Shown here: positions 8,887-46,108 of the stretch, one piece after another | Layout: every line of letters begins with the position of its first letter | Numbering within the stretch: the stretch's first letter is position 1 | Source of the DNA: Candidatus Wirthbacteria bacterium | GTDB lineage: Bacteria > Patescibacteriota > CG2-30-54-11 | DNA length: 64,000 bases | Assembly (NCBI GenBank): GCA_903889905.1 | Contig: CAISZI010000008.1 | Span: 40,766 to 104,765, forward strand | Direction of reading: 5' to 3' | Made by a program: the position numbers and the translations under genes | Notes under the pieces: generated by a model | Seen by the model: the letters and a program-made list of their open reading frames with translations, nothing else | The model's database searches: none | Told to the model about the DNA's origin: nothing

Positions 8887-9059
8887 CGTTTCAGTTTGTT
8901 AAAGCAATAACAAAAAATCCTCTGTCCCCCGCACTCGCGAGAAACAGAGGATGGCTCCCCGGGTTGGGCTTCCCCCTTCGCCAATAGGCTTCGGGGGACC
9001 ATGCTTCTCGCCCAGTTACAAAACATCCTTCGTAACCCAAGTATTTGAGTGACGAAGGA

Positions 9060-9134
9060 TGGCTCCCCGGGTTGGGCTCGAACCAACAACCTTGCGGTTA
9101 ACAGCCGCTTGCTCTACCATTGAGCTACCGAGGA
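9060..9134 (-). tRNA. tRNA-Asn (anticodon GTT), CCA encoded
   Basis: The reverse complement, TCCTCGGTAGCTCAATGGTAGAGCAAGCGGCTGTTAACCGCAAGGTTGTTGGTTCGAGCCCAACCCGGGGAGCCA, folds as a cloverleaf. It has a 7-bp acceptor stem, TTCGAGC T-loop and CTGTTAA anticodon loop. Confidence 0.85.
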
Positions 9135-33311: not shown

Positions 33312-34067
33312 ATGTCCGGTCACAACAAGTGGTCCAAGATCAAGAACAAAAAAGCCGTCACCGACGCCCAGAAAAACTCGGCTTTTACCAAAGCATTGAA
33401 ACTCATTCACAGCACGGTCAAAGCCGGTGGTCCCAATCCCGAGACCAATTTCAAGCTCAAAATGGCCATGGACAGCGCCAAACAAAGCGGCGTGCCGATT
33501 ACCACGATTGAAAATGGCATCAAAAAAGCCAGTGGCGCCGGTGCTGATGCGACGGTCATGGAAGACATCACCTATGAAGGCTATGGCCCGGGCGGCGTCG
33601 CCGTACTGATCCACGTTACCACCGACAACCGCAACCGCTCGGTCTCGGAAATCCGCCACAGTTTCAACAAACACAACGGCAGTTTGGGTGAAAACGGTTG
33701 CGTGGGATGGATGTTTGAACAAAAAGGCGCGATTTATGTCGCGGCTCCCAAGGCAACCCAGGAAGAGCTGATGCTGAAAGTGATGGAACTGCCCGTCGAA
33801 GACATAGAACAGGACGATGCAGGCATGACGATTTATACGCTGGCTGAAAATCTACATACCGTCAAAATAGGCTTGGAAACGGCTAAAATCATCCCCGAAA
33901 ACCCAGAACTGATCATGAAACCCAAAAACACGGTCAAAGTGGAAGATCCAGCCATCGCCAAACAAGTCGTGGCACTGCTCAGCGACATGGAAGACCACGA
34001 AGACGTCCAGGGCGTTTACGCCAACGCCGACTTCCCCGACAGTGTCCTGGCCAATTTGGAAGAATAG
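33312..34067 (+). CDS. yebC: YebC/PmpR family DNA-binding transcriptional regulator
   Basis: MSGHNKWSKIKNKKAVTDAQK...FTKALKLI...AGGPNPETNFKLK... is the highly conserved YebC N-terminus. 251 aa. Confidence 0.95.
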   Translation: MSGHNKWSKIKNKKAVTDAQKNSAFTKALKLIHSTVKAGGPNPETNFKLKMAMDSAKQSGVPITTIENGIKKASGAGADATVMEDITYEGYGPGGVAVLIHVTTDNRNRSVSEIRHSFNKHNGSLGENGCVGWMFEQKGAIYVAAPKATQEELMLKVMELPVEDIEQDDAGMTIYTLAENLHTVKIGLETAKIIPENPELIMKPKNTVKVEDPAIAKQVVALLSDMEDHEDVQGVYANADFPDSVLANLEE

Positions 34068-34156
34068 CTTTCTCGTCCCATTAATAAAATCCTAGACAAA
34101 TTCTCCCTGAACCCATACAATATCCAAGCGTTGTTTGCAGCCCTTTAATAATCCTC

Positions 34157-34251
34157 TCAATCCGTCCAATTTGCGCAGGACCGCTCCAAGCAAATTGGAC
34201 ACCGATTCGTTCTTTTGCCTACTTTTCTTACTCAAAGAAAAGTAGATTCTC
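34157..34251 (+). repeat. conserved ~95-nt tRNA leader element with two hairpins (copy 1, upstream of tRNA-Leu-CAG)
   Basis: AATCCGTCCAATTTGCGCAGGACCGCTCCAAGCAAATTGGACACCGATTCGTTCTTTTGCCTACTTTTCTTACTCAAAGAAAAGTAGATTCT. Confidence 0.75.
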
Positions 34252-34338
34252 GCCGAAGTGGTGAAATTGGTAGACACGCAACGTTCAGGGCGTTGTGAGC
34301 TCACGCTCATGAGAGTTCAACTCTCTCCTTCGGCACCA
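34252..34338 (+). tRNA. tRNA-Leu (anticodon CAG), long variable arm, CCA encoded
   Basis: GCCGAAGTGGTGAAATTGGTAGACACGCAACGTTCAGGGCGTTG...CTTCGGCACCA. Anticodon loop TTCAGGG. Type II variable arm. Confidence 0.85.
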
Positions 34339-34436
34339 ACCTACGCTCGGGATAGCCGTCTAAGAAGCGGCGAGCTACGGTTGGCTGCGCCAGGCTACAA
34401 AAGGTACGCAGCCATTTATGAACATTAAAACTCCCC

Positions 34437-34532
34437 ATCAATCCGTCCAATTTGTGCAGGACCGCTCCAAGCAAATTGGACACCGATTCGTTTTTTGCCT
34501 ACTTTTTTACTCAAAAAAAGTAGAAAGTCTTT
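34437..34532 (+). repeat. tRNA leader element copy 2 (upstream of tRNA-Leu-GAG)
   Basis: Same element. Hairpin 2 reads CTACTTTTTTACTCAAAAAAAGTAG, a compensated change relative to copy 1. Confidence 0.75.
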
Positions 34533-34618
34533 GCCGAGGTGGTGAAATGGTAGACACGCAAGCTTGAGGGGCTTGTGGGAGCAATCCTGTGGAGGTTCAA
34601 GTCCTCTCCTCGGCACCA
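34533..34618 (+). tRNA. tRNA-Leu (anticodon GAG), CCA encoded
   Basis: GCCGAGGTGGTGAAATGGTAGACACGCAAGCTTGAGGGGCTTG...CCTCGGCACCA. Anticodon loop TTGAGGG. Confidence 0.85.
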
Positions 34619-34789
34619 ACCTTCGCTCGCAGCGAGCTGCGGTTGGCAGGCCATCACCCAATTGATGGCTTCGCCAGCTTAATGAACTTATAGCGTACAA
34701 CTGTTAAACCAACACGCAGTTGAGCCAAAGAGGGCCTGCCCTCCGAAGCTTGTCAGGTTACGAGTAACCTGACTTCCCGAAGCGTAGGA

Positions 34790-34866
34790 GGGCGATTAGC
34801 TCAGTTGGTTAGAGCGTCTGCCTTACACGCAGAATGTCGCAGGTTCGAGTCCTGCATCGCCCACCA
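34790..34866 (+). tRNA. tRNA-Val (anticodon TAC), CCA encoded
   Basis: GGGCGATTAGCTCAGTTGGTTAGAGCGTCTGCCTTACACGCAGAA...GGTTCGAGTCCTGCATCGCCCACCA. Anticodon loop CTTACAC. Confidence 0.85.
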
Positions 34867-35010
34867 GCCTACGCTGTAGGCATCCCCATCATAATCATAC
34901 GTAGTGGGTTACCCATATTTCCGCTTTCAGCTTCGGCTGGCAGGCCATCTCTCCCCTCTTGGTTATGTGTTAGCTAACACATAACGGGATTGAACCTTAA
35001 AATCCTAATG

Positions 35011-35105
35011 TAATCCGTTCGTTTTGCGCAGGGCCGTCCCAAGCAAAACGAACACCGCTTCGTTCTTTTGCCAACTTTTCTTACTCAAAGAAAAGTTGAA
35101 TCTCC
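35011..35105 (+). repeat. tRNA leader element copy 3 (upstream of tRNA-Phe)
   Basis: GTTCGTTTTGCGCAGGGCCGTCCCAAGCAAAACGAAC and CAACTTTTCTTACTCAAAGAAAAGTTG. Both stems carry compensatory changes relative to copy 1. Confidence 0.75.
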
Positions 35106-35181
35106 GCCGAGATAGCTCAGCCGGTAGAGCGAAGGACTGAAAATCCTTGCGTCCCCAGTTCGATCCTGGGTCTCGGCACCA
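35106..35181 (+). tRNA. tRNA-Phe (anticodon GAA), CCA encoded
   Basis: GCCGAGATAGCTCAGCCGGTAGAGCGAAGGACTGAAAATCCTTG...GGTCTCGGCACCA. Anticodon loop CTGAAAA. Confidence 0.85.
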
Positions 35182-35305
35182 CTTCGAAAATCCCCCTTGG
35201 CAACCAATTGCCATTTCGTTATACTTCTCTCCGTTGGTTTTGTGAAAATGGCACCACAAACGTTAGTTCCCAGGCGGGCCTGCCCGCCGTAGCTTCTGAG
35301 CGTAG

Positions 35306-35381
<76 letters not shown>

Positions 35382-35397
35382 GATTGCAATCATCACT

Positions 35398-35428
35398 AAA
35401 AGCCCCGATAATTGTCGGGGCTTTTTTG
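35398..35428 (+). terminator. rho-independent terminator after tRNA-Gly
   Basis: AAAAGCCCCGATAATTGTCGGGGCTTTTTTGG. A 7-bp GC stem, then a T6 run. Confidence 0.8.
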
Positions 35429-35449
35429 GTAAATCAGAAGGATTGGGCC

Positions 35450-38284: not shown

Positions 38285-41200
38285 CTAATTGAAGTTGACT
38301 GCGCTGCCATTATTATAAAGCATCTGCACCTGGGCGGCGGTGAGGCCATAATTATAGAATCTCACATCATCTATCTGGCCATCGATAACACGCCAAAAGA
38401 CGGCATCGGGATTCCGGCCAATCATGAAATTACGGGCAACACTGACATTACCGGCTGCAGCGCCACTGCCTTCCAATTTTCCATTGACATAAATATATCC
38501 TACACCAGCGCTGCGCACACCAACGATATGGTACCAGGTACCGGTGGCGATGACCGTCGTGCTGCAAATGGTTGAGCTGGTGACAGAGAAATCCATACGG
38601 TTGGCGACACCGCAGATTGACCCTCCCGTATCATTTTCAAAATGCGTCCCGTCCCAGGTGCCAGAATAGACTGAATTGGAGACAGGCGGATAGTAATCGG
38701 CGAGTCCAGCGTATTTGACCCAGTAGGCAATGCTGTAATCCCCCGTCCCGAAATTGAACTGCGAGGCTGTGCCCAAATCCACATAATCATTAACGGCCGG
38801 ATTAAATGCCAGACTCGCATTCCACTTCCCAGCCGCCCCATTCCCCCAGGCCGTACCCGCCGTGCTACATGTACCCGCCGCGGTCACTCCCATCCAGGTA
38901 CCATTGAACTGATTGGAGCTCACATCGTGAATCGTCGTGCCCTGACATTCGTCCAGGTTGTAGTAGGAGATTGGCTTGCCACGATTGTAGTCCCAGGCAA
39001 CCTGGGCGGCGGAGCGGGCATAATTATAAACCTTGACATCATCGATGGCACCATTAAATGGCCAGACGGTTGCCCCTTCGCGACCGATTTCAAAAGCGCC
39101 CGAACTGGTGGTCGGATTGGAATGGGTTCCCTGGGAGGCATAACCCAGCAAAACACCATTTTTATAAAACTTGACCGTAGTGCCACTGCGCACAGCCACC
39201 ACATGCTGCCAGACATTGGTGACGACACTTCCGGATGCGCTAAAGGAGTTTTGCAGCGCGCCTGCCTGATTGGTCGTCACATTCAACTCATCCCCAAGCA
39301 ACGAAAAATTGTAGCCGTCGGTGTTGTACGTTCCGCGAGCCATAATCCGTGTCGCTGCGGGTAATGCAGTCGGATTGATCCAAGCCTCGAGCGTAAAATC
39401 CGAACTGGTAAAATTCAGTGCAGATGAGGGCGAGTTGTCATTGGCCGTGATGTAATCTCCACTCGCACTGCCGTTACTCCCCGTAAAACTACCCGCTTTG
39501 CCAATTTTGCCGCTCTGCCAATGGCTGTCTGATCCAGTCCAGGTCCCGATGATCCCATTGCCACTGATATCATTGGCCGTGCTGCCGGTTCCTTCGTTTA
39601 GATTCCAATACGCCACCGGCGCGCTGCAGCTGGTACTATCCCCCGGCACGCAATACTCGCGGGCGGCGGAATTATCAGGAACACCGGCCGCAGTGGTACC
39701 GGTGGTGCCAAGCGTAAGGGCTGAACCATGGTTGTAGTCAAGCAGAACCTCGTCGGGCGACAGGGCGTAGTTATAGATCTTGATCTCATCCAAAAGTCCA
39801 TTGAGATAACGACTGGCTAATCCTGAATTGTCATTGCCAAAATAGAGCTTGTCGTCAGCGGCTGAAACCGCACCCTGTGACCAGGTAGCGGAACCTTGGC
39901 TTACCCCATTCAGATACAAGGTCGCCACCTGATTTTGATAAACGCCAACAAGCTGGTACCAGGTGCCCGTTGTCAGGGTCGCCGTGGCATAAGGAGAATT
40001 ACACGCGACGTTGGTTTTACAAATGCTGAAGTAAAATTTGTTCTGTGCTTGATCAATACCCAATCCATAACCAAACTTATTGGCAGTCGAATATTGACTG
40101 ACAATCATGGGCGAAGACAAACTGACTGAGCTCACATTTACCCACGTCGAAATCGTGAAATCATTGGTGGAATTAAACTTATAAATGCTGTTAGTCGCAT
40201 CAACATAGCCGTTTGCGTTAGCCGGGAATGACAGCGCTTTGTTGTATTTGCCAGCTGTGCTCCATGTCACCGAAGAGCCCAGCGTGCCGCTGACATTACT
40301 TGGACTGGCATCGTGTGCAGTAGTGCCATAACCTTCGTCAAATTTCCACCAACCAATGGTCGATCCCACCGGACTTCCGCCCGCCGGATGGCCACCATTC
40401 ATGTCTTCAACGACCTGCTTCCCGGTACGGGCATAGTTATAAATCTTGACCTCGTCGATCTGACCATTGGTGCGATAGTTGACGCCGCTGTTGGCACCGA
40501 TGTTGAGAGTGGAATCCGACTGTTTCATCGTGCCCGTCGTCGTATCGGTCCAGGTGGTGCTGTCTACACCATCAACATACATTTTGAACTGGGTACCACT
40601 ACGGACAACCTCAACATGATGCCAGGCGTTGATACTGATCGTGGGGCCATCAGCCTCGTACTTGGTATTGCTGGTATTCCACCAGTGAAAATATAATTTG
40701 TCGTCAGCGGCCAGCGAGGTCAGGTCAAAGGACGCATAAGGCGAGGCCACGTTACGCTGTACATAAATAATTTGGTCTTCCCCTTTGGCCGACGACAGTT
40801 GACTCAGTTTGACCCAGATCGAGATGGACAGGTCATTGGGTGGCATCAGCGTAGCGCTGTTACTGACACTCAAAAAGTTATCCGAACCATTGAAATTGAG
40901 TGAAGTACCAAATTTCCCCGGTTTCCACTGGCTACCAAGCGTACCATTCAAGGTGCCGCTAAAGCCATTGCCACTCGAGTCATTGGCAGTGACACCCGTG
41001 TGGTCATCGAATTTCCAATACCCCACTGGCCCCGGCGCCCAGTTGTAAAGTTGGGAAACCTCACTGACGGACAAGGCGCGATTGTATAGCCGGACTTCAT
41101 CAATCAATCCATTATAAAAATTGGTGGGCGTGGTGGTTGAATCCTGAGCACCAACCTGGAAGCGTCCGAGGGTGGCAGATATGCTGGAGGGAATTGTGCC

Positions 41201-44200
41201 GGTGGTGGTGGTTGCCTGCAGCACACCGTTAATGAAGATCGTGACAGTCTGCGCTGTTGCGTTGTAGGTGCCGACGACATGATACCAGTTGCCGGTAACC
41301 AGACCGGCGGACGAGGTGGTGACATAATTGCTGGAACTTCCGACATAAAAACGGATATCGGTGGCGTATTGGGCCAGCTGATAATCCGTATTGGCACCAT
41401 CCCACTTGCCCGCAATATCAAATTGGGTCGCTGCTGTGACGGACGAGGGTTTGATCCAGGCGGAGACCGTCAGATTACTTGAAAGACTCACCGTGCTTGG
41501 ATAATTAACGACCAATTGGGGCCGATTCCCGGATGTAGCCCCGTCACTGGAAGTAAAATTTTTATAAGTGCTTGTAGATCCTTCGTTACCGATCAGCCAA
41601 AGACCGTAATTGGTCGCTGATCCGGCTACCCAGGCGGCGACATCGGCCTTAACGTCCCAATTGAGAAACCCGGTAACGTATGTAGCACTTGTGCTGGAAG
41701 TGGGCGAAACGGCAAAGTCAGTCCCGCTCAAGCCACCGGCAGTATTGGATCCCCATTGGACATAGTTACCGGTATTATTGTTTCTGTAATTCCAGGTAGA
41801 ACCGTCGGCAGCACCGGGCGGGGCAACATTTTGACTGCCCTCCCACCACTGGGTTAGGCCCCGATACACTCCGATGTTTTCAGTGGTGCCGCCACCACCC
41901 TCGTTATAGAGCGTCAATGTTGATGAGCTGATCGTGGCATTGCTGGGTATTGAGGAAACATCGAATTTAATTAAAGTACGAAAGAGTGAAGTGGTCGCAC
42001 CACGGCCAACTTCAATGTTAATGGCAGTCCCTTGGTTTGAACCCGGTGCGACCACACCATAAAGATACGTATCCAATCCTGAAGCAGCATCGGGCTGAAG
42101 CGTCAGAGATTGCGACTGATACATGTACTGCGAACTGGCTGCTGTGAAACTGCCGGCATTACTGAATTTACCACTGCTGAACGCAGGAGTATTGACGCTG
42201 GTCAGGGTGTTACCGTTGCCCGAGGAATCATTGGCATTGCCAGAACTCTCATCCATCTTCCAATAACCAACCAACCCGTTGCTCAGTGCCATCGAATTTT
42301 GGGCATTTGAGCCAATCGAAACACCTGTACCATCATCGGCATTACCGCCGTGAGCATTGAAATCTTGTTTGACCTGAATTGCCGTCCGACCATAGTTATA
42401 AATTTTAACTTCATCCATAAAACCACCAAAATATCCGGTCATTGAGGCCATCTTCACACCCAAACCCAACGATAGGCTATTGGTTGGGATTGAACTTGGC
42501 ACTGTCCCAGTCCCATCTGCTTTGCCATTGACATAAAACGTAACTGTCGTCCCAGACTTAACGACTGCCAGATGGTACCACTGACTGGCACTCAATACCG
42601 TATTACCATTAATCGACGTTGGATGAATATATAACGACAATTGCCCGCTGCTATTTAAAAACATCGAATAACCATTGGAGTTATCTTTTTGAATTAAATA
42701 TTGGGTAATGCCGGTGACTGTTATAAATTTGAACCAGCCCTCCCAAGTAGCATCGCCTGTCAGATTTATAGCCGCTGTTGACGGAACGCTGGCATACTGA
42801 GTGCTGCCGTCAAATTTGAGGCACTTGCCACTGACACACATGTCTTCGGCTGCCCAGGTGGGATCAACTGGCAAGGATGTATCGCTACCGCCCAAATACC
42901 CGTTATTACCCATGAGGTAGGTACTGGCTGCAGGGCTGGCGGCCCCCGATGGTACGCCACTAGAATAAACCGTCACACGTCCAACACTGCCTGCGCCTCC
43001 TGTCGCACCACCACCACCACCACCACCACCCCAGCCGTTACAGCCACCATTACCTGCTGCATAACCGCCACCACCACCACCGCCATTGGCAGCGCCAGCA
43101 GGCCCGGCTGTTCCCGTACCGCAACCATCGTCACCATGCCCGCCCGCACCGCCTGCAGCACCGGTTCCGGCCGTACCACCAGAGGCAGTCACCAAACTGG
43201 AACCCAACGTTGCTAGACCAGTCTTGATCAGGACACTACCACCTGCACCGCCACCGCCACTACCTCCGCCGCCGCCGCCCGCACCAATCAACCAAGTCGA
43301 GCCAGCACCCGCCGTTCCTGCCGTTCCATTGGAACCATTTCCCCCATTGCTTCGAATCGCACCACTAGTAGTGACGATTGGAGCAAATATTGTCAGAATC
43401 CCGCCACCTGTCCCACCGCCACCACCGGCTCCACCGGTACCTGGGCTTGCAAGACCATTACCATTTGCTCCCGTTCCGCCTGTCGCTCCATTACTACCTA
43501 GATACAATTTCTGTAAGTCTGAGCTCCCGTATGTAGAGACATTTTTAAAATTATCGGACCCCACTCCCGCAGGACCGGGAGTGCCAATATCCGCATAATA
43601 TCCACCATTCCCATTGCCACTGGTACTAATCGCTCCTCCATTACCAGCATTGGGCGGAGCCGTACAAGGCATTTGCAGACAACTGCTCGTGCCACCCGCA
43701 CCACCAGTCAACGTCACCGCGCCACTACCACCGCCACCACCGGAATTGGCACCAGCACTGCCTGTTGTACTGCTATTTCCTCCCACCACACCATCACCGG
43801 AGCCACCTATTGCGCCGGTACTTGTATTGTTCATCTGAGCATACGCGCCACCGCCGCCACCACCACCACCTTTGGCTGGCATAGATCCGACTGCACCATA
43901 AGATCCCCCTTGACCGCCACCGCCGCCACCACCGCCAGGAAAAGTAGATGACCCGGAACCACCACCAGCACTACCACCGGGCACACCCATCACAACAGGA
44001 TAGGTCGCCGTATAGCCTTTGGCATTCATATCAATTGTTCCGGAAGCAGTCACTGTACCGGTGGCCCGAAAAAAAAGCACGCCATTTTTGGTCCCGTTAA
44101 ACGCATCCACGGTCAACGTTGCACCGCCCGAAACAGTTACTGTTCCATAATTCGGTACGCGCTGCACCATAATTTGCTGAGTGGTGCCATCATAAGCATT

Positions 44201-46108
44201 GGCAAACGGAACTGTCACGTTGATGTTGACGTTATTAGCGCCCGAAAAGCTAGCAATGCGCCTGGTTTCATACTGGCCGACGGTGGAATAATTGGATGAG
44301 GTTCCCTGCAGATTGATGACCAGAATTTCATCCCCAACCGCGAGTCCTAGCGTATCCGGATTGTTGGTTGAAACCGTGACATAAGTCGCACCAACCGAAG
44401 TCAGCACTGTGGAGCTGAAATTCACCGCATCAGCTTTGGCGCGACTGACGCAGGTATTGGAAGATGCGGCGGTTACATTCACCGTACCGCTGGGGACGCT
44501 GCAGTTGCCATCGGCGCCAGTACCATAGTCAGCACTGTCTTTGGCGGTGACGGAGTCATAAACTTTTTGACCACTTCCCTCATCAAATTTCCAGTAAGCA
44601 GCTGGCCCGGTTGACTGCTCCTCGGTCCCGCTCAGCGTCACTGTCGGCATCGTACTGACTGTCTTGTGCACAAACACCCAATCCAACGTCGTGGTAAAAG
44701 TCAGCGTATTGCTAAATTCCAGCTCCAAACTACCCGTCGGCACATTGGTTGTGGGATTAGAAATTTGGGAACCATTTTGATAAAACAATGTACCCGATGC
44801 ACTATAACGATTGATTCGGTAATTCTGCATGGCCGTACGGTCAGTCACCGTCAGGGCAGCACTCGTCGTTGCTGAACTGGCTGCCTTGGAACTCGAATAG
44901 ACATTGGTCGTTGTGGCACTATTGGTATAAAGTATGGCGTTGTTCGTATCGGTCACGTCACGATAGCCCGCAGCCGCCAGTTTATTGGTACCATCTCCGG
45001 CCGCGGTCTGCATGCGATAATCCATGATTGAATAACCATAACTGAGATTGGAACGAATTTTGGCACCAGTGCTGATTGAAGCCAATCCGCTGCCTGCTGT
45101 CACTGAGCCCGTTACAGTCCAATTTCCAGTATCAATACTACTGCCACTGAAATCATCAAAAAACTGAAAAACACTGGTTCCACTGGCAATGTTAACCACC
45201 TGCGAATTGCCATAGTAAACATAAATTGCCGTGCCTGTTGTGACAACAGAGGGGACCTTGGTCCAGATGGCAGTAGTCTGACTGTCGCACTGATTGGTTC
45301 CTGTCTCGATCCAGTGCGGGAGCAATTTCCCATTGATGTCGGTAACCCGTATATCGGCGCAATCTGAAAGCAGCTTGCCCTGGTAGATCAATCCGGAAGC
45401 ATTATTGCTGCGAGTATCCAGCGTAATCGACACCTGGAAATCCGTCTGGTTGGACGAAATACTGGTGAGGTCAACACGTTTGCGATAAAGCCAGTTTTCG
45501 TTCCACCAAGCCGCGGCTGCGGATTTGCGGTTGAGGAAGAAGACGATGCCCACGATCACGACCAGAGAAGCAGCCAGGCCAAACCAGAAACGGCGGGAAC
45601 GGAGAGAGAGTAACCCCTCCTTGCCTCCCCTTACTCTAAGGGGAGGAATAAGAAAATGCCAAAAGCGACTTAAACCTCCTTCCCTTAGAGTAAGGGAAGG
45701 TTGGGATGGGTTACTCTGTCTTATCTGCTCAGTGCTGGAGCCTGCGACGTGCTTAGAGTAAGAGGGGGCAGGGGGAGTTACTCCCCATTCTTTTTTCGGT
45801 TTCTCCCGCGCTGCCGCCACCATCCCTTCCGCCCGCTGCTCAACCACCGGCGGCAAATCCATTTTTTTGACAAATATTTTGGGCTTTTTGATCACAAATA
45901 CCGGCATCCCAGCCTTGGGGCGGAGGTCGATGGGGTGGGCATGGTTGGTTGAAGGTTGTGGTTTTTTCGTTGTTTCAGCTTGATCTAACCCACCTTTATC
46001 CTCCCTTACTCTAAGGGAGGACTTCTGAAAGTCTCCCCTTAAAGTAAGGGGAGATTTAGAGGGGTTATGATTCTCCCCGAATTCTAGTTTTTTCCTGGCA
46101 TTTGACAT
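38285..46108 (-). CDS. giant membrane-anchored surface protein (2607 aa). Layout: N-terminal cytoplasmic tail with REP-derived repeats, TM anchor, DUF2341-like domain, Gly-rich region, about 10 LamG-like (concanavalin A-like) domains.
   Basis: TM helix FWFGLAASLVVIVGIVFFL. DUF2341-like block WWNENWLYRKRVDL...DIRVTD...IYVYYGN. Gly-rich low-complexity stretch about 330 aa long. Repeated LamG-like units of the form VGYWKxDExSG...DSSGNGN.GT...GKFG.A.SF.G...Y, each ending ...IDEV+IYNYA. Confidence 0.9.
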   Translation of the reverse strand: MSNARKKLEFGENHNPSKSPLTLRGDFQKSSLRVREDKGGLDQAETTKKPQPSTNHAHPIDLRPKAGMPVFVIKKPKIFVKKMDLPPVVEQRAEGMVAAAREKPKKEWGVTPPAPSYSKHVAGSSTEQIRQSNPSQPSLTLREGGLSRFWHFLIPPLRVRGGKEGLLSLRSRRFWFGLAASLVVIVGIVFFLNRKSAAAAWWNENWLYRKRVDLTSISSNQTDFQVSITLDTRSNNASGLIYQGKLLSDCADIRVTDINGKLLPHWIETGTNQCDSQTTAIWTKVPSVVTTGTAIYVYYGNSQVVNIASGTSVFQFFDDFSGSSIDTGNWTVTGSVTAGSGLASISTGAKIRSNLSYGYSIMDYRMQTAAGDGTNKLAAAGYRDVTDTNNAILYTNSATTTNVYSSSKAASSATTSAALTVTDRTAMQNYRINRYSASGTLFYQNGSQISNPTTNVPTGSLELEFSNTLTFTTTLDWVFVHKTVSTMPTVTLSGTEEQSTGPAAYWKFDEGSGQKVYDSVTAKDSADYGTGADGNCSVPSGTVNVTAASSNTCVSRAKADAVNFSSTVLTSVGATYVTVSTNNPDTLGLAVGDEILVINLQGTSSNYSTVGQYETRRIASFSGANNVNINVTVPFANAYDGTTQQIMVQRVPNYGTVTVSGGATLTVDAFNGTKNGVLFFRATGTVTASGTIDMNAKGYTATYPVVMGVPGGSAGGGSGSSTFPGGGGGGGGQGGSYGAVGSMPAKGGGGGGGGAYAQMNNTSTGAIGGSGDGVVGGNSSTTGSAGANSGGGGGSGAVTLTGGAGGTSSCLQMPCTAPPNAGNGGAISTSGNGNGGYYADIGTPGPAGVGSDNFKNVSTYGSSDLQKLYLGSNGATGGTGANGNGLASPGTGGAGGGGGTGGGILTIFAPIVTTSGAIRSNGGNGSNGTAGTAGAGSTWLIGAGGGGGGSGGGGAGGSVLIKTGLATLGSSLVTASGGTAGTGAAGGAGGHGDDGCGTGTAGPAGAANGGGGGGGYAAGNGGCNGWGGGGGGGGATGGAGSVGRVTVYSSGVPSGAASPAASTYLMGNNGYLGGSDTSLPVDPTWAAEDMCVSGKCLKFDGSTQYASVPSTAAINLTGDATWEGWFKFITVTGITQYLIQKDNSNGYSMFLNSSGQLSLYIHPTSINGNTVLSASQWYHLAVVKSGTTVTFYVNGKADGTGTVPSSIPTNSLSLGLGVKMASMTGYFGGFMDEVKIYNYGRTAIQVKQDFNAHGGNADDGTGVSIGSNAQNSMALSNGLVGYWKMDESSGNANDSSGNGNTLTSVNTPAFSSGKFSNAGSFTAASSQYMYQSQSLTLQPDAASGLDTYLYGVVAPGSNQGTAINIEVGRGATTSLFRTLIKFDVSSIPSNATISSSTLTLYNEGGGGTTENIGVYRGLTQWWEGSQNVAPPGAADGSTWNYRNNNTGNYVQWGSNTAGGLSGTDFAVSPTSSTSATYVTGFLNWDVKADVAAWVAGSATNYGLWLIGNEGSTSTYKNFTSSDGATSGNRPQLVVNYPSTVSLSSNLTVSAWIKPSSVTAATQFDIAGKWDGANTDYQLAQYATDIRFYVGSSSNYVTTSSAGLVTGNWYHVVGTYNATAQTVTIFINGVLQATTTTGTIPSSISATLGRFQVGAQDSTTTPTNFYNGLIDEVRLYNRALSVSEVSQLYNWAPGPVGYWKFDDHTGVTANDSSGNGFSGTLNGTLGSQWKPGKFGTSLNFNGSDNFLSVSNSATLMPPNDLSISIWVKLSQLSSAKGEDQIIYVQRNVASPYASFDLTSLAADDKLYFHWWNTSNTKYEADGPTISINAWHHVEVVRSGTQFKMYVDGVDSTTWTDTTTGTMKQSDSTLNIGANSGVNYRTNGQIDEVKIYNYARTGKQVVEDMNGGHPAGGSPVGSTIGWWKFDEGYGTTAHDASPSNVSGTLGSSVTWSTAGKYNKALSFPANANGYVDATNSIYKFNSTNDFTISTWVNVSSVSLSSPMIVSQYSTANKFGYGLGIDQAQNKFYFSICKTNVACNSPYATATLTTGTWYQLVGVYQNQVATLYLNGVSQGSATWSQGAVSAADDKLYFGNDNSGLASRYLNGLLDEIKIYNYALSPDEVLLDYNHGSALTLGTTGTTAAGVPDNSAAREYCVPGDSTSCSAPVAYWNLNEGTGSTANDISGNGIIGTWTGSDSHWQSGKIGKAGSFTGSNGSASGDYITANDNSPSSALNFTSSDFTLEAWINPTALPAATRIMARGTYNTDGYNFSLLGDELNVTTNQAGALQNSFSASGSVVTNVWQHVVAVRSGTTVKFYKNGVLLGYASQGTHSNPTTSSGAFEIGREGATVWPFNGAIDDVKVYNYARSAAQVAWDYNRGKPISYYNLDECQGTTIHDVSSNQFNGTWMGVTAAGTCSTAGTAWGNGAAGKWNASLAFNPAVNDYVDLGTASQFNFGTGDYSIAYWVKYAGLADYYPPVSNSVYSGTWDGTHFENDTGGSICGVANRMDFSVTSSTICSTTVIATGTWYHIVGVRSAGVGYIYVNGKLEGSGAAAGNVSVARNFMIGRNPDAVFWRVIDGQIDDVRFYNYGLTAAQVQMLYNNGSAVNFN

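Follow-up and report, generated by a model that had tools for sequence, protein, structure and literature searches.

The locus described here raises the question of why three of five neighboring bacterial tRNA genes should carry the same structured leader. It lies in a 64,000-nucleotide stretch of DNA (hereafter the window) from a Candidatus Wirthbacteria bacterium (assembly GCA_903889905.1, contig CAISZI010000008.1, positions 40,766 to 104,765), in which a yebC homologue (33312-34067; Pfam TACO1/YebC) precedes a cluster of five tRNA genes. We name the ~95-nt element found in these leaders E and its copies in the window E1, E2 and E3. We find that E contains, in addition to two hairpins, a linker tract that matches the purine arm of the second hairpin as the third strand of a triple helix would. 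The element probably forms such a triple helix, and we tentatively propose that it caps RNA 3' ends left by RNase P.

An earlier note on this DNA had placed the same element directly 5' of tRNA-Leu(CAG), tRNA-Leu(GAG) and tRNA-Phe(GAA), and the tRNA calls and the alignment of the copies bear this out; the interval 34143-35105 that it assigned to the feature also takes in tRNA-Val(TAC), which has no E. The copies belong to a repeat family (D1) of 111 nt and 76-78% identity, as judged by repeat analysis of the window and by alignment. The loop motif of E occurs three times in the window, against 0.27 expected, and the folding z-scores of the three copies are -5.0 to -6.8 relative to shuffled sequence. 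All three copies lie within the tRNA cluster, which is closed by a G+C-rich hairpin followed by a T-run of canonical form at 35398-35430, and no copy was found outside tRNA flanks in the 64 kb. When E was compared with the covariance models of Rfam 15 it gave tRNA matches only, even at an E-value threshold of E <= 10. Searches at gathering score returned tRNAs alone from the window and its relatives, and the Rfam search found no rRNA in the window.

Each copy consists of two hairpins joined by a linker of ~20 nt (Table 1). Hairpin 1 is capped by a tetraloop and its stem is 9-11 bp long across copies. Its inner 3-bp helix is GGA/TCC in E1 and E2 but GGG/CCC in E3, a compensatory change. Hairpin 2 is A/U-rich, with a pyrimidine 5' arm, a purine 3' arm and, in the window copies, a 4-bp lower stem (CUAC/GUAG, replaced by CAAC/GUUG in E3). 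It ends 6-9 nt before the tRNA, placing the end of the purine arm 10-13 nt (lower stem plus tail) from the tRNA 5' end. The hairpin sequences quoted in the earlier note are present in the window, except that the 5' arm of the second copy ends in T (GTCCAATTTGT), giving a G•U pair.

The secondary structure is upheld by covariation. About eight copies of E are known, some of them paralogues within one genome. In an alignment of eight copies to a covariance model, which therefore leans towards structure, standard pairs occupy 97.1% of stem cells and 12 of the 22 pairs show changes on both sides. None of 500 shuffles reached the observed pairing and covariation, and sliding the 3' partners by 1-3 columns reduced pairing to 38-61%. 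In a direct comparison of E1 with E3, all stem differences are compensated. The proposal of the earlier note that the two hairpins are under selection for structure is thus supported.

The linker between the hairpins holds a pyrimidine tract that is the mirror image of the 5' arm of hairpin 2, and is neither a direct nor an inverted repeat of it. The same tract is the parallel Hoogsteen reading (A to U, G to C) of the purine 3' arm, with agreement in both length and C/G position. Giving linker tract, 5' arm and purine arm in that order, the strands are UUCUUUU, UUUUCUU and AAGAAAA in E1 and E3; UUUUUU, UUUUUU and AAAAAA in E2; UUUCUUU, UUUCUUU and AAAGAAA in the copy before tRNA-Val of a relative; UUUCUUUUU, UUUUUCUUU and AAAGAAAAA in the copy before tRNA-Gly; UUUCUUUU, UUUUCUUU and AAAGAAAA in the copies at the related loci L138, L146 and L145; and U6, U6 and A6 in the own leader of tRNA-Pro at L146 and L138. 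The parallel match is exact in all eight modules, which represent five distinct variants. In five of the eight (three distinct variants) the tract is asymmetric, and none of these five tracts fits the antiparallel Watson-Crick alternative or can be read as a repetition of the 5' arm. When the linker tracts were dealt among the copies, a match in all eight was reached 50 times in 200,000 permutations; when each variant was represented once, a single permutation out of 120 fits. The cores of E1 and E2 are identical apart from one C>T change and three 1-nt deletions, and the deletions take a C out of both the linker tract and the 5' arm and the matching G out of the 3' arm, so that all three strands lose the same layer. 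Since duplication and inversion do not generate mirror repeats, selection is the simplest cause of the mirror tract.

We also scanned for the arrangement in generic form (a Hoogsteen tract, 2-12 nt, a Watson-Crick arm, a 3-8-nt loop and a purine arm of length at least 6). Across both strands of the window the scan found the three E copies only, it returned nothing from 100 block shuffles, and at the related loci it found only E copies and the tRNA-Pro leader. Taken together, these patterns make it likely that hairpin 2 and the linker fold as an intramolecular pyrimidine-motif triple helix of 6-9 layers, composed of U•A-U triples with one C+•G-C.

The predicted geometry appears feasible. The triplex region sits on a lower stem of 4-5 bp, 6-13 nt upstream of the tRNA 5' end, and in every copy of E the base next after the third strand is a G, in register with the G at which the lower stem begins. 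The connector from the Hoogsteen strand to hairpin 2 is only 2-3 nt long and must span the deep groove of the lower stem, which is sterically reasonable because in H-type pseudoknots loops of 1-2 nt cross 6-7 bp of deep groove. On the opposite strand of the E DNA a hairpin is followed by a purine tract, the arrangement of a purine-motif triplex, which to our knowledge is not stably adopted by RNA. As the opposite strand offers this motif only, the functional strand would be that of the tRNA.

Table 1. Positions in the window of the tRNA genes, of the copies of E and their parts, and of upstream motifs
Feature	Position	Strand	Details
Sigma-70-like promoter candidate	34093-34121	+	TAGACA-17-TACAAT; between yebC stop (34067) and copy 1
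A/T-rich motif	34144-34152	+	TTTAATAAT; upstream of copy 1
E1, leader of tRNA-Leu(CAG)	34157-34251	+	minimum free energy -32.4 kcal/mol, z -6.8; covariance model 87.2 bits
E1 hairpin 1	34164-34200	+	11-bp stem, 34164-34174 paired with 34190-34200
E1 hairpin 1 internal loop	34175-34177 and 34188-34189	+	GCA (34175-34177) opposite AA (34188-34189)
E1 hairpin 1 inner 3-bp helix and CCGC loop	34178-34187	+	
E1 predicted Hoogsteen strand	34210-34216	+	TTCTTTT; parallel match of purine arm AAGAAAA
E1 hairpin 2	34219-34245	+	lower stem CTAC/GTAG; loop ACTCA
E1 hairpin 2, Watson-Crick arm	34223-34229	+	TTTTCTT
E1 hairpin 2, purine arm	34235-34241	+	AAGAAAA
E1 tail		+	ATTCTC, 6 nt, between hairpin 2 and tRNA
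tRNA-Leu(CAG)	34252-34338	+	ARAGORN, Rfam; 5' end is the presumed RNase P site
A/T-rich motif	34424-34431		ATTAAAAC; upstream of copy 2
E2, leader of tRNA-Leu(GAG)	34438-34532	+	covariance model 79.7 bits
E2 hairpin 1	34445-34481	+	contains the G•U pair
E2 predicted Hoogsteen tract	34491-34496	+	T6
E2 hairpin 2	34499-34523	+	T6/A6
E2 tail	34524-34532	+	
tRNA-Leu(GAG)	34533-34618	+	ARAGORN, Rfam
tRNA-Val(TAC)	34790-34866		ARAGORN/Rfam; leader without E
A/T-rich motif	34997-35003		TTAAAAT; upstream of copy 3
E3, leader of tRNA-Phe(GAA)	35010-35105	+	covariance model 88.0 bits
E3 hairpin 1	35017-35053	+	
E3 predicted Hoogsteen tract	35063-35069	+	TTCTTTT
E3 hairpin 2	35072-35098	+	lower stem CAAC/GTTG
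E3 tail	35099-35105	+	
tRNA-Phe(GAA)	35106-35181	+	ARAGORN, Rfam
tRNA-Gly(GCC)	35306-35381		ARAGORN/Rfam; leader without E

The predicted third strand, the invariant loop of hairpin 1 (below) and the placements of E at other tRNAs had all been missed by the earlier note, which had looked to a covariance-model search and named absence of the element from the other tRNA loci of relatives, together with no transcription across it, as what would count against it. Our covariance model for E (R1) gives eight copies scores of 77-96 bits and has no further match in the window. The absence is not borne out: relatives do have E, though at different tRNAs, among them tRNA-Val and tRNA-Gly. The YebC of the window has no close relative among 5.8 billion proteins, and exact look-ups of it and of P0126 returned no record. 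The best matches show 56%, 50% and 49% identity, the first belonging to an unclassified 'MAG TPA bacterium' (GCA_035340955.1; loci L001 and L002) and the last to Candidatus Wirthbacteria CG2_30_54_11. These relatives share with the window the gene order prepilin peptidase, pseudopilins, yebC and the same five tRNAs, which places the window in a thinly sampled lineage akin to Wirthbacteria. The 56% relative has E before tRNA-Val and none at its Leu, Leu and Phe genes. One strain of it (L002, L137, L142) also has E before tRNA-Gly, yet strain L001, whose YebC is identical to that of L002, has another type of leader there. The Phe-Gly spacers of the two (L001 8155-8304, L002 8246-8544) are entirely different and have been swapped exactly from tRNA end to tRNA end; tRNA spacers thus seem to be exchanged as cassettes through recombination within tRNA genes.

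A degenerate pattern fitting five copies from the window and relatives was used to search metagenomes and found further true copies at L138 (two) and L145; 12 of the 17 loci returned were chance matches without hairpin 1, and the pattern had no match in viral contigs. The covariance model also detects a further copy in the metagenome-assembled genome GCA_029573015.1 (L146). In genome contigs, a pattern for the G+C-rich loop of hairpin 1 gave only chance matches in high-GC genomes, and the sole genome locus with the longer loop motif (L079) had no covariance-model match. E was not found at the same tRNAs of L122 (Candidatus Wirthbacteria), L125 (the 50% YebC relative), L147/L148 or L149. Reduced forms occur in two leaders: that of tRNA-Ser(TGA) at L146 carries just one hairpin of hybrid type, ACUUUUC-GCAGAAGCGUUCCAAG-AAAAGU, which stops 12 nt short of the tRNA, and that of tRNA-Leu(GAG) in Wirthbacteria has CUUUUCC-GCAGAUACCCUCAU-GGAAAAG. 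As far as could be searched, E is restricted to two or three related uncultivated lineages.

Some copies face a tRNA gene from the other side. At L138 and L146, E adjoins tRNA-Pro on the opposite strand, the antisense of the tRNA-Pro 3' end following after 10 nt; the antisense tRNA-Pro folds as a mirror cloverleaf. Here an 87-bp insert (L138 2405-2510, - strand; L146 125-245, + strand) is flanked by the 19-bp direct repeat AATGGTCGGGGTGCGCGGA, which is antisense to the 3' end of tRNA-Pro. The insert consists mainly of one hairpin of a second repeat family, and the whole resembles a small insertion that duplicated its target at that 3' end. Given this flanking repeat, E would originally have abutted antisense tRNA-Pro at the usual spacing. 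In L001 and L002, diverged inverted copies of E (42-50 bits) are arranged head-to-head with those before Val and Gly, next to the 3' ends of the tRNAs that lie upstream; these copies retain a short U4/A4 version of the three-tract arrangement. The antisense placements fit either an element that uses any tRNA-shaped neighbor or one that spreads as DNA between tRNA flanks. We also considered a tRNA-like fold downstream of E at L145 and L138 and set it aside, its folding z-scores being weak (-1.5 to -2.0) and a minihelix substrate of RNase P speculative. At L145 a hairpin AGATAC-CTC-GTATCT at ~1625-1645, preceded by A8 on the + strand, forms an intrinsic terminator on the - strand just upstream of E, which suggests antisense transcription across E at this locus.

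The second repeat family (units such as AATTATCCTGCGAGGTACTCCGAGCAGTTGATTGGA, in tandem with a 71-nt period in L001) is found in tRNA-Leu leaders and downstream of E, at L001 6940-7140, L138 2620-2740 (- strand), L145 1780-1873 and L146 145-190. It forms a long hairpin with tandem G•A/A•G mismatches, and a change of CUGC/GCAG to CUAC/GUAG is compensatory.

The stem of hairpin 1 is free to covary, in contrast to several unpaired features of E. The asymmetric internal loop of hairpin 1 (5'-RCA opposite 3'-AA) is invariant across organisms whose YebC proteins are only 56% identical, as is the frame GCAG-R-N5-YYCAA-G, and the spacing from CAA to the pyrimidine tract is fixed at 20 nt across copies. 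The loop is a probable protein-binding site. Three other assignments were examined and rejected: a K-turn or C/D-like reading fits one copy only; the GUA in the loop of the tRNA-Val copy, which resembles a T-box specifier, is coincidental, the other copies mismatching their tRNAs; and pairing of the linker with the tRNA 5' end is not conserved.

The earlier note had listed a structured pre-tRNA leader among the possible roles of E. The position of the element places it in the pre-tRNA 5' leader, and the promoter scan of the window detected no promoter-like site inside E or between E and the tRNA, so that E should be part of the primary tRNA transcripts. Upstream of the copies, CTAACA-18-TAAAAT before E3 scored as promoter-like, and the A/T-rich motif preceding each copy could be either a -10-like box or a transcribed boxA-like motif. 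No terminator-like site was detected in the window between the five tRNAs or between yebC and E1. Transcription of the tRNA units from their own internal promoters, which would agree with the independent units suggested in the earlier note, and transcription by read-through are both possible. A candidate promoter inside hairpin 2 (TTGCCx as -35, AAAAGT as -10) was rejected; its spacing fits copies 1 and 3 only and fails at the other lengths of hairpin 2.

What might a triple helix do at this position? In the RNAs MALAT1 and MEN-beta, RNase P cuts upstream of a tRNA-like structure and an encoded A-rich tract is locked in a U•A-U/C+•G-C triple helix, which in MALAT1 protects the new 3' end (PMC7583470, section 3.4). 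By analogy, we propose that E is transcribed as a tRNA leader and that, once RNase P has cut, its triple helix caps the resulting 3' end. It would thus be the bacterial analogue of the pair formed by the MALAT1 triple helix and mascRNA. We regard this as a plausible reading, if one short of probable. RNase P would cut at the tRNA 5' end downstream of E, leaving an upstream RNA that terminates in the hairpin 2 triple helix. Candidates for the RNA so capped are the leader of ~100 nt, the spacer before it and, in the case of copy 1, perhaps the yebC mRNA; the triple helix would block 3'->5' exonucleases and thus stabilize the RNA.

E resembles MALAT1 and MEN-beta (NEAT1_2) in several respects. 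Like these, E has two U-rich tracts and an encoded A-rich tract, able to form a U•A-U stack broken by a C+•G-C, immediately upstream of an RNase P site (presumed in the case of E). The tract arrangement that characterizes ENE/MALAT1 elements, two U-rich tracts and one A-rich tract able to form consecutive triples, is found in all eight modules and five variants. There are differences as well. E is bacterial, and its RNase P site is supplied by a genuine tRNA rather than by a tRNA-like mimic. Its Hoogsteen strand lies 5' of a simple hairpin, whereas in MALAT1 a U-rich internal loop clamps a distal A-tract; E lacks such a clamp. On the 3' side of its triplex E would keep a lower stem and a tail of 6-13 nt; it has no sequence homology to MALAT1, and function is assigned to it by analogy. 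E may work like a MALAT1-type triple helix, but the absent clamp, the remaining stem and tail and the lack of homology place it outside the ENE family. The ENEs of viruses and transposons (KSHV PAN RNA, TWIFB1 and others) likewise use a U•A-U major-groove triplex for RNA stability, as proposed for E, but they clamp a post-transcriptional poly(A) tail in eukaryotic viruses and transposons, whereas E would pair an encoded A-tract in its own hairpin.

Among bacterial RNAs, the closest structural parallels are the SAM-II and preQ1-II riboswitch pseudoknots, which have U•A-U major-groove triples with the pyrimidine strand in the deep groove, as predicted for E. These are ligand-binding H-type pseudoknots in mRNA 5' UTRs (untranslated regions) with expression platforms, whereas E has no pseudoknot, downstream open reading frame or terminator. 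A possible functional parallel exists in the pre-tRNA spacer RNAs of E. coli (3'ETS of leuZ and other external or internal transcribed spacers), in which non-tRNA parts of precursors persist and act as RNAs. They differ from E as proposed here: RNase E releases them, Hfq binds them, and they are not known to share a triple helix or a conserved fold of two domains. Reviews published in 2020 and 2026 describe stability-type triple helices in viruses, animals, fungi, plants and transposons, and bacterial triple helices only in riboswitches and group II introns (PMC7583470, PMC13541005). Bacterial RNAs are absent from the main text of a 2026 paper on triple-helix detection.

Several observations weigh against a capping role. 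RNase P cleavage and accumulation of the leader are both steps that we infer. Cleavage would leave the 4-5-bp lower stem and a 6-13-nt 3' tail rather than the blunt triplex end of MALAT1, and the predicted fold has a paperclip topology (Hoogsteen strand, 2-3-nt connector, Watson-Crick arm, loop, purine arm), unlike the ENE clamp. The C+•G-C triple requires protonation of the cytosine. Only ~8 copies from two or three related lineages are available. E also faces the antisense of tRNA 3' ends (tRNA-Pro at L138 and L146, the inverted copies in L001 and L002), which a pure tRNA-leader role does not predict, and at L145 the opposite-strand terminator lies just upstream of it. We know of no benefit that a stable leader would bring. 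Finally, the invariant loop of hairpin 1 has no part in the capping mechanism, nor do any of the alternatives considered next explain it.

The first of these alternatives, which we consider rather unlikely, is that E is an ordinary structured spacer that insulates tRNA folding, positions RNase P or slows nucleases, the U-tract serving as no third strand or in local folding only and the leader being degraded. That E always lies a few nucleotides from a tRNA boundary agrees with this, and accumulation of the excised leader is indeed only inferred. Moreover, the other tRNAs of the cluster have different structured leaders and trailers, so structured spacers may be a general habit of the lineage. 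An ordinary spacer leaves unexplained, however, both the exact three-way covariation of tract length and C/G position and the preservation of the hairpin 1 loop between organisms with 56% identical YebC.

The other leaders and trailers have regularities of their own. A second type of leader, GGGCCTGCCC(T/G)CCG(A/T)AGC...GCGTAGG, unrelated to E, precedes tRNA-Val (34725-34789) and tRNA-Gly (35265-35305); Wirthbacteria (L122) has kept it at both of these tRNAs and L001 at tRNA-Gly. The CCCTCC or CCCGCC of this leader pairs with a stretch (GGAGGG or GGCGGG) made up of the leader's final bases and the opening bases of the tRNA's own acceptor strand, and the pairing covaries between Val and Gly. 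It is also complementary to a trailer motif, AGCTxCGGxTGGCAGGCC (34629-34655, 34929-34950, 34367-34385); the segments 34729-34750 and 34929-34950 (22 nt, 86% complementary) bracket tRNA-Val like a processing stalk. Trailer hairpins begin within or right after the encoded CCA of the tRNAs (34339-34385 and 34619-34650 in the window, 6877-6900 in L122). They take the form CCAACCTxCGCTCG...CGAGCTxCGGTTGG in the window. Wirthbacteria has a nearly identical GTCGCTC-TCGA-GAGCGAC behind four of its five tRNAs, and these hairpins constitute a conserved trailer element.

It is also conceivable, although improbable, that E is a DNA-level repeat (MITE/REP/BOX-like or att-like) that lodges at tRNA ends, its stems being kept for single-stranded DNA hairpins or its mirror repeat for H-DNA. 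E is present in several copies and sits at different places in different relatives and even strains, the entire Phe-Gly spacer being swapped between L001 and L002. Relative to the tRNA genes it can run either way, always turning its hairpin 2 end towards the tRNA, and a 19-bp direct repeat surrounds the 87-bp insert next to tRNA-Pro at L138 and L146. In being short, multi-copy, hairpin-forming and intergenic it resembles the REP/BIME, BOX, ERIC, Correia and RPE modules. Those repeats are dispersed genome-wide, however, whereas E is found only at tRNA boundaries (three copies in 64 kb, none elsewhere) and has conserved unpaired motifs and three-strand covariation. No terminal inverted repeats or target duplications were seen at the borders of E, viral contigs gave no match to it, and spacers have been replaced from one tRNA end to the next rather than had E inserted into them. 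Nor does this explanation account for the tracts: three tracts on one strand are the signature of a single-strand fold, H-DNA needing a mirror repeat only, and mirror repeats do not arise from duplication or inversion.

We think it very improbable that E is an antitermination leader of the rrn type (boxB-like hairpin, boxA, boxC-like hairpin), in which NusB/NusE binding to GUUCUUUUG or to the upstream UUUAAUAAU would give Rho resistance to untranslated transcripts. The architectures are alike, in that both place two hairpins, with a pyrimidine-rich single strand between them, downstream of the promoter of a stable RNA. In E1 and E3 the linker includes GUUCUUU, which we take to be as in the Firmicute-type boxA, and the tract stands at a fixed 20 nt from hairpin 1. 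BoxA-like strings also occur in relatives, with UGCUCUUUAAUAA and AGCUCUUUGACAU in the tRNA-Leu leaders of L125 and UGUUCUUUU in L122. A boxA consensus of the GCUCUUUAACAA or GUUCUUUGAAAA type is, however, not kept in E. Its linker tract is GUUCUUUUG, GUUUUUUG, UUUCUUUG or UUUCUUUUUG and tracks the purine arm of hairpin 2 (U6 in E2, UUUCUUUUU in the Gly copy), as expected of a Hoogsteen strand and not of a protein consensus. Further upstream, the UUUAAUAAU-like motif agrees with boxA in only 8-11 of 14 positions and could be a mere -10 box, and we found no literature linking boxA to tRNA operons. Near-consensus boxA-like strings, TGCTCTTTAATAA and AGCTCTTTGACAT, are present in both tRNA-Leu leaders of L125 (3100-3165 and 3440-3517), the second downstream of a perfect TTGACA-17-TATAAT promoter.

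Least likely of all is a cis-regulatory switch of tRNA transcription or processing, for instance a sensor of ligand, pH or temperature acting through the C+•G-C or the hairpin 1 loop: conservation is riboswitch-like, with invariant unpaired nucleotides inside covarying helices, and bacterial triple helices are otherwise known in riboswitch aptamers, but E has no Rfam match, no expression platform, no U-run after hairpin 2, no terminator-like site scored in any copy and no conserved alternative pairing (the antiparallel linker-purine pairing failing in the five asymmetric copies), and the loops of hairpin 1 bear no relation to which tRNA comes next, whereas in a T-box or similar riboswitch the two would match.

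Two further features of the window lie away from the cluster. About 90 nt downstream of tRNA-Asn (9060-9134, - strand), a 23-nt copy of the tRNA-Asn 3' end (AGCCCAACCCGGGGAGCCATCCT) at ~8948-8970 (- strand) is followed by its own hairpin and T-run and looks like an att-type remnant of integration at tRNA-Asn. A giant open reading frame at 38285-46108 (- strand) encodes 2607 aa with six LamG-type (Laminin_G_3) repeats, a DUF2341 domain and a disaggregatase-related repeat, probably a surface or adhesion protein.

Returning to the triplex cap, the antisense placements and the hairpin 1 loop can be drawn together in a more far-reaching reading, which we offer as a speculation unlikely to hold in full. 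E could be a family of small, stable RNAs in its own right, which would also cap the 3' ends of mRNAs upstream of it, such as that of yebC. The family would have no terminator of its own and would borrow any adjacent tRNA, mirror-tRNA or tRNA-like helix as its RNase P site. The 3' ends so formed would be guarded by the encoded triplex, the invariant loop of hairpin 1 would serve as a protein-binding site, and the family would spread between tRNA flanks by recombination. In that event E would be the first stability element of triple-helix type in bacteria, a prokaryotic counterpart of the MALAT1-mascRNA system.

Should the capping proposal be true, the strategy of cutting with RNase P and capping with a triplex would have arisen independently in eukaryotic long non-coding RNAs or would predate them. 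E would also represent a compact natural module (~45 nt plus a tRNA) for stabilizing RNAs that lack terminators, and would show that RNA biology has been left unexplored in a lineage that is related to Candidatus Wirthbacteria and has hardly been sampled.

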